A DNA stretch of 23,537 nt, taken from the IMG/VR virus record IMGVR_UViG_2648501437_000035; one strand, given 5' to 3'. Every line of letters starts with the position of its first letter. Positions within the stretch are counted from its first letter, which is position 1. Below the pieces are notes generated by a model that saw nothing but the letters and a program-made list of their open reading frames with translations, did no database searches and was not told where the DNA came from. The translations under genes and the position numbers were made by a program. Origin of the DNA: a virus. Its lineage: Duplodnaviria; Heunggongvirae; Uroviricota; Caudoviricetes. Positions 9,691 through 15,975 of this stretch are shown here, one piece after another.

Positions 9691-9981
9691 TCATCTTTTA
9701 ACTCCATATACCGCCAATACCCGTTTCATCGCTGCACTCTGGCGACACTCCTTAAAAATCAGGTTCGTGCTCACCTTTCCTTCCCGTTCTTCCCTGGTAG
9801 CAAACCGGTAATACACCGTTCGCCAGACCTTACCTTCGATAACCAGAAGACCTGCCCGTGCCATTTTAGCCGCGGCCTGATTTATGCTGGTTACTGTTGC
9901 GCCTGTTAGCGCGGCAACGTCCGGCGCACAGAAGCTATTATGCGTCCCCAGGTAATGAATAATTGCCTCTTTGCCCGTCAT
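9691..9981 (-). CDS. ren: Ren (protects against Rex exclusion)
   Basis: 96 aa, matches lambda Ren as recalled (MTGKEAIIHYLGTHNSFCAPDVAALTGATVTSINQAAAKMARAGLLVIEGK...). Confidence 0.88.
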   Translation of the reverse strand: MTGKEAIIHYLGTHNSFCAPDVAALTGATVTSINQAAAKMARAGLLVIEGKVWRTVYYRFATREEREGKVSTNLIFKECRQSAAMKRVLAVYGVKR

Positions 9982-10679
9982 ACACTTGCTCCTTTCAGTC
10001 CGAACTTAGCTTTAATTTCTGCGATCTTCGCCAGCGCCTGAACATGATTTAGAGGTCTGCCGCCCATGACAGGAAGTTGTTTTACTGGTTCAGGGATCAC
10101 CTCACCACGATTAATTCTCGCAGTCATATGGACAAGCTCATCTGCGGCCTTGCGCCGTAATTCCGCGTCAGTCAGCGCATTGGCCCGCATGTTCTGGTAC
10201 AGGTTGGTAACCAGCCAGTAGTGCGCGTTTGATTTCCACGGATAAGACTCTGCATCCGGATACAGGCCACGCTTCCGGCAATACTCGTAAACCATATCAA
10301 CCAGCTCGCTGACGTTTGGCAGTCCGGCGATAACGGATGCTTCTTCCCGGCACCATGCAACAAACTGCCCGGGTGATGGAAGAAATGGTCGATTCTGCCG
10401 ACGGGCTACGCGCATTCCTGCGTTAACCTGTTCCATCGAGGTGATCCCGTTTTCCCGGAAAGCCAGAACCCACTGGCGGCGGATTTCATTCAGTTCGTTC
10501 TGGTCCCGGTTAGCCAGACTCGCCGGGAAAGTTGCCAGTAACTGGCTGAACACACCGTTGATGATCTGCGCTACCTGTTGTACCTGCGGCTTTTCGTCGT
10601 ACTGTTCCGGCATGTTGTTGGTGATCCGACGCATCTGCTCACGGTCAAAGTTAACCATCTGTGCGGCGATGTTTTTCAT
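9978..10679 (-). CDS. P: replication protein P (DnaB helicase loader)
   Basis: 233 aa, near-identical to lambda P as recalled (MKNIAAQMVNFDREQMRRI...). Confidence 0.95.
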   Translation of the reverse strand: MKNIAAQMVNFDREQMRRITNNMPEQYDEKPQVQQVAQIINGVFSQLLATFPASLANRDQNELNEIRRQWVLAFRENGITSMEQVNAGMRVARRQNRPFLPSPGQFVAWCREEASVIAGLPNVSELVDMVYEYCRKRGLYPDAESYPWKSNAHYWLVTNLYQNMRANALTDAELRRKAADELVHMTARINRGEVIPEPVKQLPVMGGRPLNHVQALAKIAEIKAKFGLKGASV

Positions 10680-11614
10680 AAATCCACCCCGTAAATCCAG
10701 TCAGTGTTTGTCAGGTCGAGTTTTGGTTTTCCAGCTGTCACGCCAGCCTGTTGCTTGTTACGGTTGATTTCGAGCTGGGTCCACTTGTCGCGGAGTTTGG
10801 CCGGACTTAGCACGTTACCGGACCAGAAGTTGTCCTGGCATGCCCAGCGGAACAGCACGCACATGTCGCGGTGGTTACGTCCGTCACGTTCACGCATCAG
10901 GCGGATATCGTTAGCCCACCCTGCAAAATTCGGTTTTCTGGCTGATGGTGCGATGGTCTTCACCATGTCAAACATCCACTCTGCGGCGGTCAGGTCTTCT
11001 GCTGTTCCCCACTTGCTGCCGCTCTGAATTGCAGCATCCGGTTTAACCACAGAAAGATCGTTTTCTGGCTGGTCAGAGGATTCGCCAGAATTCTCGGACG
11101 AATAATCTTTTCTTTTTTCTTTTGTAATAGTGTCTTTTGTGTCCCCCTGTTTTGAGGGATAGCAATCCCCTAATTTGAGGGATGTTTTATCCCTCGTTTT
11201 AGGGGATTTTCCCTCGTTTTGAGGGATGTCCCTCATTTTAGGGGAACCTCCCTCGTTTTGAGGGATGCACCATTCTGAGGTGTTTTTATTTGGTCCAAAC
11301 ATGCCGCCTTGCTGCTTGATAATATTCATTCTGACGAGTTCTAACTTGGCTTCATTGCACCGTTTGACAGGTAACTTTGTAATCTCGCTAAGTTGAGAAT
11401 CGGTGATTCTGTCCATTGGTTTATTCCACCCATAGGTTTTACGCAGAATGGCAAGCAGCACTTTAAACTGTCGCTTGGTCAGATCTGCGCCTGAATAAGC
11501 CTCAATCAGCATATTTGATAGTCTGGCGTAACCATCATCGAGATCTGCCACATTACGCTCCTGTTCGGCAAAGTTACCTCTGCCGAAGTTGAGTATTTTT
11601 GCTGTATTTGTCAT
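10676..11614 (-). CDS. O: replication initiator O
   Basis: 312 aa, near-identical to lambda O (299 aa as recalled) except for a short inserted segment (duplicated IPQNEG-SPK-RD) that coincides with extra ori iterons. Confidence 0.95.
   Translation of the reverse strand: MTNTAKILNFGRGNFAEQERNVADLDDGYARLSNMLIEAYSGADLTKRQFKVLLAILRKTYGWNKPMDRITDSQLSEITKLPVKRCNEAKLELVRMNIIKQQGGMFGPNKNTSEWCIPQNEGGSPKMRDIPQNEGKSPKTRDKTSLKLGDCYPSKQGDTKDTITKEKRKDYSSENSGESSDQPENDLSVVKPDAAIQSGSKWGTAEDLTAAEWMFDMVKTIAPSARKPNFAGWANDIRLMRERDGRNHRDMCVLFRWACQDNFWSGNVLSPAKLRDKWTQLEINRNKQQAGVTAGKPKLDLTNTDWIYGVDL
11142..11267. repeat. origin of replication iterons (six ~19-bp O-binding repeats) inside the O gene, with adjacent AT-rich region at 11101-11140
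   Basis: Six tandem inverted-symmetric repeats of the form TCCCTCGTTTTGAGGGA (11142-11160, 11165-11183, 11189-11207, 11209-11227, 11228-11246, 11248-11267), followed on the O-distal side by a T/A-rich tract (AATAATCTTTTCTTTTTTCTTTTG). Confidence 0.9.
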
Positions 11615-11646
11615 AATGACTCCTGTTGATAGATCCAGTAATGACC

Positions 11647-11943
11647 TCAGAACTCCATCTGGATTTGTTCAGAACGCTCGGTTGCCGCCGGGCGTTTTTT
11701 ATTGGTGAGTCCATCAAGCGCATACTTAAAAGCCCTGCTAATCGGACTGATGTCTGATGCCATTCCGAAAGCACACAAGACCGAAGCAATAAATCTCCAA
11801 TCCGTTCTGCTTATCTTCGATTCATGACAGCCAATCATCTTTGCCAGACCGCGCTGGGTAAGCGTTGACAGGTTGATGAGTAAATCCGTTTCTGCGCGAT
11901 CAACGTCGCGCTGGGATAGTTTGCTGTAACTTGTTTGTGTCAT
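11647..11943 (-). CDS. cII: CII transcriptional activator (chimeric: non-lambda N-terminal/DNA-binding part, lambda-identical C-terminus)
   Basis: 98 aa. The C-terminal LTNKKRPAATERSEQIQMEF matches lambda CII as recalled; the N-terminal ~75 aa, including the HTH-like QRGLAKMIGCHESKISR, differ from lambda. Confidence 0.8.
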   Translation of the reverse strand: MTQTSYSKLSQRDVDRAETDLLINLSTLTQRGLAKMIGCHESKISRTDWRFIASVLCAFGMASDISPISRAFKYALDGLTNKKRPAATERSEQIQMEF

Positions 11944-12028
11944 TTCTTAATATTTCCAATAGTGAATAGTTAGTTGAAAGGTATGCGTGGAAACGCATAT
12001 GGCCTTAGTTGGTCAGATATATTGGGAC

Positions 12029-12043
12029 TCGCTTTGTCAGCGA
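12029..12043 (-). promoter_or_regulatory. nutR boxB hairpin (P22/933W-type loop)
   Basis: Minus strand UCGCUGACAAAGCGA: 4-bp stem with 7-nt loop UGACAAA, between cro and cII. Same loop as the hairpin upstream of N. Confidence 0.65.
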
Positions 12044-12081
12044 CGTAGGACGAATGTCCATTGTGAAAATAGCGGTGTTAC

Positions 12082-12291
<210 letters not shown>

Positions 12292-12306
12292 TTAGTACAT
12301 GCAACC

Positions 12307-12376
12307 ATTATCACCGCTAGAGGTAAAATAGTCAACGCGCACGGTGTTAGATATTTATCCCTTGCGGTGATAGATT
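12307..12376. promoter_or_regulatory. OR operator region with divergent promoters pR (minus strand) and pRM (plus strand)
   Basis: Three 17-bp operators: OR1 12309-12325 (TATCACCGCTAGAGGTA), OR2 12333-12349, OR3 12356-12372. pR on minus strand: TTGACT at 12330-12335, 17-bp spacer, GATAAT at 12307-12312. pRM on plus strand: TAGATA at 12348-12353, 17-bp spacer, TAGATT at 12371-12376. Confidence 0.85.
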
Positions 12377-12379
12377 TAA

Positions 12380-13096
<717 letters not shown>

Positions 13097-13173
13097 GGCC
13101 AGCAACGGATCACAACAAACACATGGGGCGGCGGATTAAGGGTGATGGAGAATCGAAATAAGTTGAGGTCAAC

Positions 13174-13329
13174 ATGAACACGTTCAGCATAATCGCGATA
13201 CCTTTTTTTGCCCTTTCAGTGGTTCTGTTGACTCTTGGCGCTACCAGGAAGAACCAAGCCAGCTTCATCGTTGGCGGCGTGTTTATGGCGTCATGCGTGG
13301 TTAATGCCATTATCGGCATGTCTCTTTGA
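13174..13329 (+). CDS. small hydrophobic protein, 51 aa, predicted two transmembrane helices
   Basis: Hand-found ORF (below ORF-track cutoff): GAGG RBS 5 nt upstream of ATG at 13174. Product MNTFSIIAIPFFALSVVLLTLGATRKNQASFIVGGVFMASCVVNAIIGMSL has two hydrophobic stretches separated by TRKNQ. Immediately downstream of cI on the same strand. Confidence 0.4.
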   Translation: MNTFSIIAIPFFALSVVLLTLGATRKNQASFIVGGVFMASCVVNAIIGMSL

Positions 13330-13521
13330 GCGCTATGAGATCAGGCATCCTCGTTACTTTGTCATGTGTGACAGCCTGGTATGCACTCTGCGAGCTTTGA
13401 TGTGGTTTACCACTTTAATAGTCACCGTATCACTAAACTGATTAGCTTTACTCATACTCTTGTGGATTCGCTATTTCTGATGTCAATGCAAAAAAATACT
13501 AAGGAAACAAAAAGGATACTT

Positions 13522-13788
13522 ATGTCAGATAACACTATTAAAATCATACCTCAGCACATGACCGCCACATCAGTTCTTATTACGCCTGATCGTGCTGAAA
13601 CAATCATTACTTTTTACCGCCATGAATTTGAGCATCACATGCAGTCTGATGAGCAAGGAAAGAATAGCTTCCAAGTAAAAGTTGAGTTGATCCCTAACAT
13701 GTCAGTCTCAATGAGCCCGGATCAAGCTGTTGCATTAGTAAAATCATTACAGGTAGCTCTCAGGGATAATGGGCTATGGAAAGACTGA
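13522..13788 (+). CDS. hypothetical soluble protein, 88 aa (first gene of the cI-distal pair occupying the rexA position)
   Basis: ATG at 13522 preceded by AAAGGA (7-nt spacer); the ORF track extends upstream to 13381. Its stop overlaps the start of the next gene. No recognised motif. Confidence 0.6.
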   Translation: MSDNTIKIIPQHMTATSVLITPDRAETIITFYRHEFEHHMQSDEQGKNSFQVKVELIPNMSVSMSPDQAVALVKSLQVALRDNGLWKD

Positions 13789-14426
13789 AGCCAGTTTCTT
13801 CAGTTCAACCTACCTCAGGAACAACATCATCAGTTCTTCCAAGTATTATAGTTAGTGCAACCCTAGCAGCGACAACCGTTTCTCCTTATGGGGATCCATC
13901 TCAGTACCAAAGTATTGGTATTGATGCTAAGGTATCAAATAGAGTTTCATACGCCATGGACGAAACGGGTTTGCGCCCAAGTAAGGAAGATGTAGCGATG
14001 AAGAGTGATACCCTGGAGGTAAGCGTGAGCGGAATGTCCAGAGAAGAACTTGACGCAAAGCTTTCACAAAACAAATCAGAGGTAGAGTCTATTGCTGCGG
14101 AAATGCGTCGCGAATCAGCTGACTTTAAAACCTATTATACTCAGCAATTTTCTTCTATTGAGAGAGGTATTGCTGAAATTAAAGGTGAAATCGGCGGTTT
14201 GAAAACGGGACTTACAACGACTCAGTGGGCGATGGCCGTTGGCTTGACTTTAGTTACTGTGATTCTGTCTGGCGTGATGTTAGCCTCAAGTTGGATTATC
14301 TCCGGCAATGACAAGTCACCATCAGTAACCAGCCCGGCTCCAATTATAATACAGGTACCGACACAGCAACCATTAACGAGCGCTCCAACTAACCAATCGT
14401 CATCACAACAAGCTCCTAAGCAATAA
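13776..14426 (+). CDS. hypothetical membrane-anchored protein, 216 aa: Ser/Thr-rich N-terminus, predicted coiled-coil, single C-proximal transmembrane helix, low-complexity tail
   Basis: Start ATG overlaps the upstream gene (ATGGAAAGACTGA). Charged, heptad-like region (ELDAKLSQNKSEVESIAAEMRRESADFKTYYTQQFSSIERGIAEIKGEIGGLK), then a hydrophobic helix (WAMAVGLTLVTVILSGVMLASSWII), then a P/S/T/Q-rich tail. Not similar to lambda RexA or RexB as recalled. Confidence 0.65.
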   Translation: MERLKPVSSVQPTSGTTSSVLPSIIVSATLAATTVSPYGDPSQYQSIGIDAKVSNRVSYAMDETGLRPSKEDVAMKSDTLEVSVSGMSREELDAKLSQNKSEVESIAAEMRRESADFKTYYTQQFSSIERGIAEIKGEIGGLKTGLTTTQWAMAVGLTLVTVILSGVMLASSWIISGNDKSPSVTSPAPIIIQVPTQQPLTSAPTNQSSSQQAPKQ

Positions 14427-14431
14427 ATAAA

Positions 14432-14457
14432 CCCGGCCACCGCGCCGGGTTTTCTTT
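14432..14457 (+). terminator. rho-independent terminator after the rex-position cassette (tImm-like)
   Basis: CCCGGC (14432-14437) pairs with GCCGGG (14444-14449), 6-nt loop, followed by TTTTCTTT. An A-rich tract upstream makes it potentially bidirectional. Confidence 0.7.
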
Positions 14458-14607
14458 GCCTCACGTTCGCCCCAAAACACATAACCAATTGTATTTATTT
14501 GAAAATTAATAGATACAACTCACTAAACATCGCAATTCAGATCTCTCGATCACCTCCCAAGCCACACACCCCTGCAAAAAAATAAATCTATATAAAAAAC
14601 ATACAGA

Positions 14608-14671
14608 TAACCATCTGCGGTGATAAATTATCTCTGGCGGTGTTGACATAAATACCACTGGCGGTGATACT
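14608..14671 (+). promoter_or_regulatory. OL operators (OL3, OL2, OL1) and pL promoter
   Basis: Matches lambda pL/OL as recalled: OL3 ~14608-14625, OL2 ~14629-14645, OL1 14653-14669 (TACCACTGGCGGTGATA); pL -35 TTGACA 14643-14648 and -10 GATACT 14666-14671. Confidence 0.9.
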
Positions 14672-14739
14672 AAACACATCAGCAGGACGCATTACTCACC
14701 AGGGCGGTGAATATACAACGATTCGAATATGAATCTACG

Positions 14740-14754
14740 GCGCTGACAAAGCGC
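14740..14754 (+). promoter_or_regulatory. nutL boxB hairpin (P22/933W-type)
   Basis: GCGCUGACAAAGCGC: 4-bp GC stem with 7-nt loop UGACAAA, about 60 nt downstream of the pL start. Matches the boxB I recall for P22-type N proteins. No boxA recognised with confidence. Confidence 0.7.
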
Positions 14755-14919
14755 AATAACCAAAGTGAACTTTGGGGTGTGGTGAAGGGTTCATGGACGG
14801 GCATATGTCGCACGTAAAGCGGCGAGGCCTGCGGGACTATTGCCGAATTGAAGTAGGCCGAAACAGGTCGAAATGGGTCTCCCACCTACCACACCACCAA
14901 AGTTCATCAGGAGGTCTAT

Positions 14920-15303
14920 ATGACACGCAGAACTCAGTTCAAAGGCAATTCACGTTCTCGTCGTCGTGAGCGTTTAAAGGCAAAGGCATTAGCTAACGGC
15001 GTACTGGCCCGCGAAGAAGCAATAAGTTCAGAAGTATTACACCGCCCTACTCTAAGCAGAGCGCAGATTCAGGCTAAAGGTACTCACGAAACGCCTGAGC
15101 GCATAGAAGACGCTAAGCCAATTAAGTTCATGGCACAGGACGTGATCTGGCAACAGAAAGAATACAGACGCAATCTGGAGCGAGCGGCCATTGTGTACGC
15201 GAATGAGTTTGGACATAAGCAACCAGAAACTGGTGTATGTCTTCCAAACGTAGCCATTTACGCGGCAGGCTACCGGAAATCAAAACAACTGACGGCGAGG
15301 TGA
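14920..15303 (+). CDS. N: N antiterminator (non-lambda; P22/933W/H-19B type)
   Basis: 127 aa, first gene downstream of pL/nutL, AGGAGG RBS. N-terminal arginine-rich motif (TRRTQFKGNSRSRRRERLKAKA). C-terminal end PNVAIYAAGYRKSKQLTAR resembles the P22-type N C-terminus as recalled. Confidence 0.8.
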   Translation: MTRRTQFKGNSRSRRRERLKAKALANGVLAREEAISSEVLHRPTLSRAQIQAKGTHETPERIEDAKPIKFMAQDVIWQQKEYRRNLERAAIVYANEFGHKQPETGVCLPNVAIYAAGYRKSKQLTAR

Positions 15304-15361
15304 CTTGTGTTGGTCGCCAGAAAATGAAATTAGGCAGCAAACCACTTATTTGAGGTGAGAT

Positions 15362-15832
15362 ATGACAAAATCATGGAGCGTACCTTTTCCTGAATCAGAA
15401 ACTGAACATGATGGAATGCCTGTTTTCTGGAGATTCCAGGCGACAGTTGAAGAAGATGGGATAAAAATATTCGCACTTCAATATATAGCTTTTCATCAGA
15501 CAGAGCATTATGCATGGTTGGTTCCTGCGCATTGGATTGTTAATTTTAAACCAGCACCAAATCAGTGGTTACAGGAATGGAAACAAAGGAGAAATAGATA
15601 TGCAATTAAGAAAGTAGCAAAAAATGCAGAAAGATCTTTTGCATTCCCAACGAAGAAACTTGCCATTGAAAGTTTATTGCGCCGGAAGAAATACCATTTA
15701 ATGAGAATCAAACAAGATTTGGCTGTTGTATCAACTCTTGTTGATGGTATGAAGAATATTGATACATCAACACCAGATATTGAATATAACTTTGGACACA
15801 ACCAAGAAACAGAAAATTGGGTATTTTATTAG
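15362..15832 (+). CDS. hypothetical early protein, 156 aa (occupies the ral/sieB region of the pL operon)
   Basis: ORF with GAGGTGAGAT-ATG RBS, directly downstream of N. AT-rich 3' half, basic region (KQRRNRYAIKKVAKNAERSF, LLRRKKYHLMRIKQ). No recognised motif. Confidence 0.6.
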   Translation: MTKSWSVPFPESETEHDGMPVFWRFQATVEEDGIKIFALQYIAFHQTEHYAWLVPAHWIVNFKPAPNQWLQEWKQRRNRYAIKKVAKNAERSFAFPTKKLAIESLLRRKKYHLMRIKQDLAVVSTLVDGMKNIDTSTPDIEYNFGHNQETENWVFY

Positions 15833-15975
15833 TACGAATAAGCACTGTGTATTCATTCCAACGAGTGAATACACGGAGCAATGTCGCTCGTAACTAAACA
15901 GGAGCCGACTTGTTCTGATTATTGGAAATCTTCTTTGCCCTCCAGTGTGAGGGCAATTTTTTTGACGGAGGATAT

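Follow-up and report, generated by a model that had tools for sequence, protein, structure and literature searches.

HK97 genes 49 and 48 in the rexAB slot of a lambdoid prophage: a conserved, repressor-linked gene pair and candidate exclusion module

The DNA analysed here, referred to as the window, is a stretch of 23,537 nucleotides from an IMG/VR virus record of the class Caudoviricetes (IMGVR_UViG_2648501437_000035). It comes from a lambdoid prophage, and the region under study is 100% identical to E. coli E110019. Between the cI repressor gene and the pL promoter, where lambda keeps rexA and rexB, the window carries a cassette (13097-14460) with three open reading frames (ORFs) on the cI strand, arranged as a preliminary description of this DNA had placed them. 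That description took the three for unfamiliar proteins that might form a lysogen-expressed exclusion system. We report that two of them are the products of HK97 genes 49 and 48, that these two alone form a conserved pair tied to prophage immunity regions, and that the pair may be an exclusion module resembling RexAB in its logic.

Results

Layout of the cassette

The repressor gene and the cassette comprise the following features.

12383-13096, plus strand: cI repressor gene, an ORF of 237 aa of the lambda/HK97 type, annotated as cI or LexA family in HK97 and E110019
13174-13329, plus strand: orf51, an ORF for a candidate 51-aa membrane peptide
13330-13521, plus strand: spacer of 192 nt
13522-13788, plus strand: gene 49, an ORF of 88 aa, HK97 Gp49 family
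13776-14426, plus strand: gene 48, an ORF of 216 aa, HK97 Gp48 family
14429-14460, plus strand: intrinsic terminator, end of the operon and constant right end of the mobile cassette

Genes 49 and 48 overlap by 13 nt (ATGGAAAGACTGA), a geometry in agreement with the translational coupling proposed for them and kept in their Klebsiella homologues. The cassette is closed, again as first described, by a strong terminator: a hairpin at 14429-14452 followed by UUUUCUUU, with a folding energy of -18.9 kcal/mol (z = -4.8) that none of 200 shuffled sequences equalled. Terminator and fold scans found no convincing terminator between cI and gene 49, and no plus-strand promoter-like site was found in 13097-13521. 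By analogy with lambda, from which we also take transcription from pRM, the pRM and pRE transcripts of cI should read into the cassette. Its G+C content is 0.38-0.46, against 0.42-0.50 in the flanks. Possession of its own terminator is a mark of a moron as defined by Juhala et al. 2000 (summarised in PMC3594210); as a whole, the cassette resembles an appendage of the repressor operon rather than a unit standing on its own.

The 88-aa and 216-aa proteins are HK97 Gp49 and Gp48

The preliminary description had recognised none of the three proteins. The 88-aa and 216-aa ORFs are in fact Gp49 (NP_037734) and Gp48 (NP_037733) of phage HK97, where the pair occupies the same position as in the window, between cI (Gp50) and N (Gp47). 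Over 13097-14460 the DNA is 99.6% identical to HK97 and 99.8% identical to HK225, and the same pair is present in HK225 (gp43/gp42) and in Lambdavirus PDP110P1. The immunity region from cII to gp45 is HK97-like as a whole (98.5% over 11607-15962). The replication genes differ: the window prophage has lambda-type O and P, and HK97 has genes of the P22-type/DnaB-type.

HK97 gp48 and gp49 have been annotated since 2000 without a product name or function. A remote-homology check with PHROG profiles matched both proteins over their full length to families of unknown function, the 88-aa protein to phrog_26809 (E = 2.9e-62) and the 216-aa protein to phrog_5820 (E = 9.6e-69). The genes themselves are thus already catalogued, as HK97 gp48/gp49; what is new is the family-level picture that follows.

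Gp48 is a predicted tail-anchored membrane protein with a conserved helical core

In an AlphaFold model, Gp48 has a long helix at residues 89-142 (pLDDT 85-90) and a second one at 148-177, which coincides with the sole strong hydrophobic segment of the protein (150-177). Hydropathy and model agree with the coiled coil and single anchor originally described. Residues 1-85 and 178-216 are modelled without structure. We considered residues 18-35 as a second membrane helix and rejected them, their 15-residue mean hydropathy being only 1.67 and the segment being absent from other subfamilies. We predict a tail-anchored inner-membrane protein, with its N-terminus inside and its tail in the periplasm. 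Read along the chain, the layout is a variable N-terminus (1-85), the conserved helix, the membrane helix and a P/Q-rich tail with the motif PIIIQVP.

An exhaustive profile search placed 203 clusters (50% identity) in the Gp48 family at E <= 0.001, and 107 at E <= 1e-10, with nearly all members 130-270 aa long. All members that bear an organism name belong to the Enterobacterales (Citrobacter, Yersinia, Morganella, Klebsiella, Kosakonia, Xenorhabdus, Sodalis and Pantoea). We assessed conservation across 82 family members (alignment A5). The most conserved part is the cytoplasmic stretch at residues 89-118, and the conserved cytoplasmic sequence reads S-R-E-E-L-D-A-K-L-x-x-N-K-A-E-V-x-x-V-A-x-x-M-R-x-E-M-A-x-x-R. 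The coiled-coil segment is of variable length across the family, Q150-W151 begins the membrane helix, and the first 40-110 residues are unconserved.

Beyond the membrane helix lies a strand-like motif (PIIIQVP, PTVIYVQQP, PIVIQVP and similar), following the pattern QP, two or three I/V, Q/Y-V, then P; 23 of the 82 members match when this pattern is written as a strict regular expression. The tails (14340-14426 in the window) are rich in P, Q and A, with PAPAPAP runs in some. Lys is the final residue in 50 of the 82 members, K or R is among the final three in 71, and a few members have no tail at all. Such a Lys-ended tail is reminiscent of Lpp, whose C-terminal Lys is cross-linked to peptidoglycan.

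The Gp48 family corresponds to none in Pfam, NCBIfam or PADLOC, and profile searches of PDB sequences returned nothing below E = 0.17. When the three window proteins and the 82 family members were scanned against Pfam, PADLOC, PHROGs and NCBIfam, only coiled-coil noise or families without function appeared. The Gp48 model was not usable for a fold search, being too poor outside its helices (mean pLDDT 52). One likeness was pursued further, that to the CCDC90-like/DUF1640 family (PF07798), in which a coiled coil is likewise followed by a single C-terminal membrane helix. PF07798 gave weak matches in 25 of the 82 members (best E = 2.4e-7), and we rejected membership of Gp48, whose 12.6 bits fall below the gathering cut-off of 33.5. 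The matches look like generic coiled-coil similarity, since Baculo_PEP_C and NPV_P10 were also matched, and are uninformative on function.

Gp49 and the exchangeable upstream partners

The AlphaFold model of Gp49, the predicted small soluble partner protein, was built on a 36-sequence alignment and consists of four antiparallel beta strands and a C-terminal helix (mean pLDDT 77). Its 88-aa start is backed by a Klebsiella homologue. Searches of Pfam, NCBIfam, PDB and BFVD found no informative relative of Gp49, structural or by sequence; an apparent likeness to DUF3467 or to small beta-sheet proteins of the SecB kind was dropped for want of a Pfam match.

Both genes are clearly genuine coding genes under purifying selection. 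Unsaturated homologue pairs gave dN/dS values of 0.11-0.26 for Gp48-like genes and of 0.06-0.25 for the upstream partner genes, with 0.12 for one close pair of the Gp49 type. Among 25 near-identical E. coli-type copies, the 651 nt of gene 48 show no nucleotide variant at all. Gene 49 shows three polymorphisms in the same 25 copies, all of them non-synonymous and all within residues 42-57 (S42P, K47N, I57T), a stretch that in the model spans the end of strand 3, a loop and the start of strand 4.

A small ORF is always present immediately upstream of the Gp48-like gene, abutting or overlapping it, and it belongs to at least three unrelated families. One is the Gp49 type, to which a second partner group is probably related (hhalign E = 2.5e-4, probability 43%). 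Another is a zinc-ribbon protein (CxxC...CxxC) unrelated to Gp49, and there are at least two further types. Scans of the partner proteins against Pfam, PADLOC, PHROGs and NCBIfam yielded only zinc-ribbon or coiled-coil noise. Partner type and Gp48 N-terminus type vary together (adjusted Rand index 0.48). Since the two pieces of DNA are adjacent, this covariation shows an exchange of partner and N-terminus as one unit against a conserved core. The covariation is compatible with physical interaction of the two proteins, without being proof of it.

The pair is linked to repressor genes in other prophages

A locus scan by exact peptide patterns (alignment A1) yielded seven loci. We also inspected about 30 divergent loci and measured the gap between the repressor gene and the small ORF in about 20 of them. 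In most of the 30, the pair sits behind a repressor gene on the same strand, at a distance of 24-134 nt. The order of repressor, small ORF and Gp48-like gene on one strand recurs in Klebsiella michiganensis, Kosakonia, Yersinia and IMG/VR contigs, and the repressors ahead of the pair include both S24-containing and HTH-only types. This same-strand linkage with short gaps makes it very likely that the pair is co-transcribed with the repressor, and so expressed, in the lysogen.

A second setting occurs in prophages of the Xenorhabdus type, where the pair adjoins a Mnt/Arc-Ant (immI-like) region and at one locus (L047) lies directly behind a Mnt-like gene. At four loci (5516-7648 of L006, from Xenorhabdus sp. 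KK7.4, and L035, L042 and L045) the Gp48-like pair has no neighbouring CI-type repressor; its neighbours are an Arc/Mnt-like gene, an antirepressor of the KilA-N/P22_AR_C type and a RelB/ParE toxin-antitoxin pair. In a Yersinia intermedia prophage (L005, 3746-4691), two paralogues of 132 aa and 135 aa stand between the repressor and the partner/Gp48-like pair. Each has an N-terminal membrane helix and no family match, and they may be extra cargo of the operon.

The cassette moves between immunity regions of E. coli prophages

Among 5426 complete E. coli genomes, 52 contain the cassette, always at 99% identity or more; rexAB is found in 99, and a lambda-type cI C-terminal domain in 1212. One and the same cassette (at least 98.9% identical) stands behind at least seven different repressors: the lambda/HK97 cI, a hybrid with another DNA-binding domain, three with an HK225-type C-terminal domain and two of the HTH-only type. 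These include repressors with and without the S24 cleavage domain.

The right end of the cassette is constant at 14460, just past the terminator (HK225 and loci L012, L013, L017 and L028). To the left, the blastn match with HK225 spans 13072-14460 (99.8%) between unrelated flanks, and the HK225 repressor gene stops short of the matched segment. In L012 and L013, the HTH repressors (139 aa and 133 aa) end in ...YMGRRIKGDGESQ and a stop at a point from which homology with the window starts (13121). Two further features can accordingly be read at the left end.

13072-13096, plus strand: final 25 nt of cI, at which the segment shared with HK225 starts on the left, a non-coding relic behind the different repressor of the HK225 type
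13121-13161, plus strand: relic of the 3' end of an HTH-only repressor gene, reading MGRRIKGDGESK and a stop, identified by its match to L012 and L013

Such nested repressor relics suggest serial transfer of the cassette between immunity regions.

The interval from cI to N has been described as a variable accessory-gene site, and lambda rexAB and bstA of Salmonella phage BTP1, which occupy the same slot, are transcribed with cI in lysogens (PMC7067206). Our survey of the slot found six different contents across seven loci: rexAB; the cassette (HK97 and HK225); a 126-aa hypothetical protein; a frameshifted hypothetical; a 185-aa protein with a DUF1828 protein; and nothing. The last three intact examples come from prophages with a lambda-type repressor C-terminal domain, namely L066 (3064-3444, the 126-aa protein), E. 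coli SCU-112 (L069, 3037-4343, the 185-aa hypothetical and DUF1828) and the empty L068; their contents are uncharacterised.

orf51 lies outside the conserved module

The 51-aa peptide has two hydrophobic segments, at residues 4-22 and 29-51 (Kyte-Doolittle 19-residue mean above 2), with a basic loop between them, so that the two membrane helices ascribed to it are borne out by hydropathy. Only 3 of the 106 ORFs of 40-80 aa in the window have this two-segment pattern. A good Shine-Dalgarno sequence, GAGG, stands 5 nt ahead of the ATG. The substitutions found in L012 and L013 (I7L, G22S, C41S, I46V) are conservative in the frame of orf51 and radical in the antisense frame. Annotation is uneven: HK97 and HK225 leave orf51 out, HK225 having antisense ORFs there instead, and PGAP includes it, as WP_001091427.1, for some E. 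coli genomes but not for most. On this evidence we lean towards orf51 being a real gene.

Even so, orf51 does not belong to the conserved module. It was never met apart from the cassette, the Klebsiella and Kosakonia loci lack it, and no divergent homologue was found; only the 88-aa/216-aa pair is conserved beyond E. coli. Furthermore, L012 and L013 diverge from the window by about 5% in orf51 and hardly at all from about 13320 onward, so a mosaic joint near 13310-13330 sets orf51 apart from genes 49 and 48. The three-gene unit of the preliminary description must therefore be reduced to a pair.

The spacer between orf51 and gene 49 travels with the cassette and is almost invariant, with two variant sites in 25 copies. 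It gave no plus-strand promoter or terminator, no Rfam match and no significant RNA fold. A small palindrome, TGTCATGTGTGACA, lies within it at 13359-13372.

Comparison with known exclusion and defence systems

The likeness to lambda RexAB consists in the shared slot between cI and OL, the cI strand, the terminator before OL and the combination of a soluble with an inner-membrane protein. The proteins themselves are dissimilar. BLASTP aligned the 88-aa protein with RexA at no E value up to 100, and the 216-aa protein with RexB over 13 residues only (E = 0.69). RexA has 278 aa compared with the 88 of Gp49; RexB, with 143 aa, is polytopic in the membrane, whereas Gp48 combines one C-terminal membrane helix with a long cytoplasmic helix; and the order of the genes for the small and the large protein differs as well. 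The cassette thus replaces rexAB without resembling it in sequence, as had been claimed.

Beyond RexAB, homology to a characterised system would also have spoken against the proposal, and searches of Pfam, NCBIfam, PADLOC, PHROGs and PDB did not reveal any. Eight partner and two Gp48-like proteins of other loci gave only noise in PADLOC (E >= 0.0085). None of the PHROG superinfection-exclusion families was matched, the only significant PHROG matches being to families without function. Since it has no homology to RexA, RexB or any PADLOC system, the cassette falls outside the known defence families.

Among the Rex-like two-gene prophage defences of actinobacteriophages (the 'collusion' series), some pairs reportedly join a membrane protein to a cytoplasmic one with no sequence similarity to RexAB. 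These systems have different hosts, unrelated sequences and demonstrated phenotypes, whereas any phenotype of the present cassette is a prediction. Prophage defences of this series, such as that of Gordonia phage CarolAnn, are described as inhibiting unrelated phages (PMC6426606). Small inner-membrane exclusion proteins made by a prophage are also known from HK97 (gp15) and P22 (SieA) (PMC3594210, PMC10883804). Those act singly, whereas Gp48 always has an upstream partner and a large cytoplasmic part.

Neighbouring features of the locus

The order of genes mirrors the lambda map, with P, O, cII and cro on the minus strand and cI, the cassette, OL/pL and N on the plus strand. The features that flank those already listed are these.

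9978-10679, minus strand: P
12082-12282, minus strand: cro
about 14600-14680, plus strand: OL operators and pL promoter (TTGACA-17-GATACT at 14643-14671), downstream border of the slot
14920-15303, plus strand: N gene, 127 aa, the same as HK97 Gp47

The lambda OL repeats TATCACCGC and TACCACTGGCGGTGATA are readable in the OL region. The N gene is intact here; RefSeq annotates only its last 69 nt, as an 'incomplete' pseudogene, in E110019 and other genomes, which is an annotation artefact.

Discussion

Our preferred, though tentative, reading of the cassette is a lysogen-expressed, two-component exclusion module of a sensor and a membrane effector, which would follow the logic of RexAB with unrelated proteins. 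Position and architecture lead us to this reading, and we give it somewhat less than even weight. Of the exclusion system originally proposed, the slot, the strand and the logic of a soluble plus a membrane protein have stood, and the three-gene unit has not. In outline, the pair would form an accessory operon transcribed from the repressor promoters, with its own terminator halting transcription shortly ahead of OL/pL. Gp48 would be the conserved effector, with a cytoplasmic coiled-coil stalk that probably oligomerises, one membrane helix and a short periplasmic tail. Gp49 would bind the variable N-terminal region of Gp48 and serve as a specificity, sensor or control subunit. Upon infection by another phage, the complex might alter the inner membrane, by letting ions leak or by hindering the entry of the genome, and so stop the infection. 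Residence in the rexAB slot, lysogenic expression, mobility, many small and diverse clusters, a variable partner and a membrane protein are all features that one expects of an anti-phage module.

Several points weigh against this proposal. The anti-phage function is a prediction from position and architecture, and a location next to the repressor is also compatible with lysogeny control or with another kind of lysogenic conversion. The three window proteins matched no PADLOC-DB v2.0.0 family at E <= 1, informative relatives of the proteins were found neither in Pfam and NCBIfam nor in PDB and BFVD, and a literature search by gene names, accessions and topic found no paper that gives HK97 gp48/gp49 a function. 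The topology and oligomeric state of Gp48 come from prediction, by way of a model that is poor outside the two helices, and the covariation of partner and N-terminus could merely mirror the adjacency of their DNA. Finally, HK97 already possesses an exclusion protein, gp15 (PMC3594210).

An alternative that we consider unlikely is superinfection exclusion at entry, in which the periplasmic tail of Gp48 would block the channel formed by tape-measure or ejection proteins, the partner merely aiding its folding or insertion. The models would be HK97 gp15, P22 SieA and T4 Imm. The predicted bitopic, tail-anchored form of Gp48 would suit such a role, and so would the periplasmic strand-like motif conserved in its family (23 of 82 strictly) and the P/Q/A-rich tail, Lys-ended in 50 of 82. 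Pairs of the Xenorhabdus type, moreover, adjoin a Mnt/Ant region, the neighbourhood in which P22 keeps sieA. Exclusion proteins of this kind are small, inner-membrane and prophage-expressed (PMC3594210), but the known blockers are single proteins, whereas here a cytoplasmic partner is always present and is swapped along with the cytoplasmic N-terminus, which suggests that the input is cytoplasmic. The best-conserved stretch of Gp48 also lies in the cytoplasm, and a few family members do without the tail.

It is rather improbable that the pair tunes the lysogeny or induction of its own prophage, for example through FtsH/HflKC or through the stability of a repressor or antirepressor. The strict tie to two kinds of immunity region, CI-type and Mnt/Ant-type, would be in keeping with such a role, for which the proposed parts of RexA and RexB in the lambda switch and of Hex in phage 434 are precedents; other genes of the slot affect the switch, according to two reports (bioRxiv 10.1101/2021.04.19.439022, PMC3564112). 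A repressor-specific partner is nevertheless argued against by the presence of the same cassette behind at least seven unrelated repressors, with and without S24, and the many lambda-type prophages with an empty slot or unrelated cargo show such a function to be dispensable for the switch.

Equally improbable is another host-benefiting lysogenic conversion with no anti-phage role, such as envelope stress tolerance or colonisation in the manner of lambda bor and lom: lysogen-expressed accessory genes do have diverse roles (PMC3594210, PMC7067206) and Gp48 is a predicted envelope protein with a usually Lys-ended tail, but the swapping of partner and N-terminus, the many small clusters of low abundance and the mobility between immunity regions are more typical of arms-race genes.

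Returning to the sensor-and-effector reading, a wider and more speculative extension, which we regard as doubtful, would see in the Gp48 family a novel class of immune effector borne by prophages. Its members would be oligomeric coiled-coil proteins, tail-anchored and spanning the inner membrane, whose conserved, Lys-ended tail detects or obstructs the delivery of phage genomes, whose swappable N-terminus and small partners set the specificity of the trigger, and which travel between the immunity regions of Enterobacterales prophages.

In conclusion, HK97 is a laboratory model phage whose rexAB slot holds genes without an assigned function. Cargo of this sort in the cI-to-N slot will not surprise a specialist, yet here it belongs to a model phage, is conserved and is readily testable. 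Nor is the pair a one-phage curiosity: its family runs to about 200 sequence clusters and, in those Enterobacterales where members could be placed, goes with the immunity regions of prophages. If it serves defence, it would represent a family missed by current defence catalogues and a compact two-protein system for studying signalling to or across the inner membrane. If it does not, the pair would still mark a recurrent function expressed by the lysogen.

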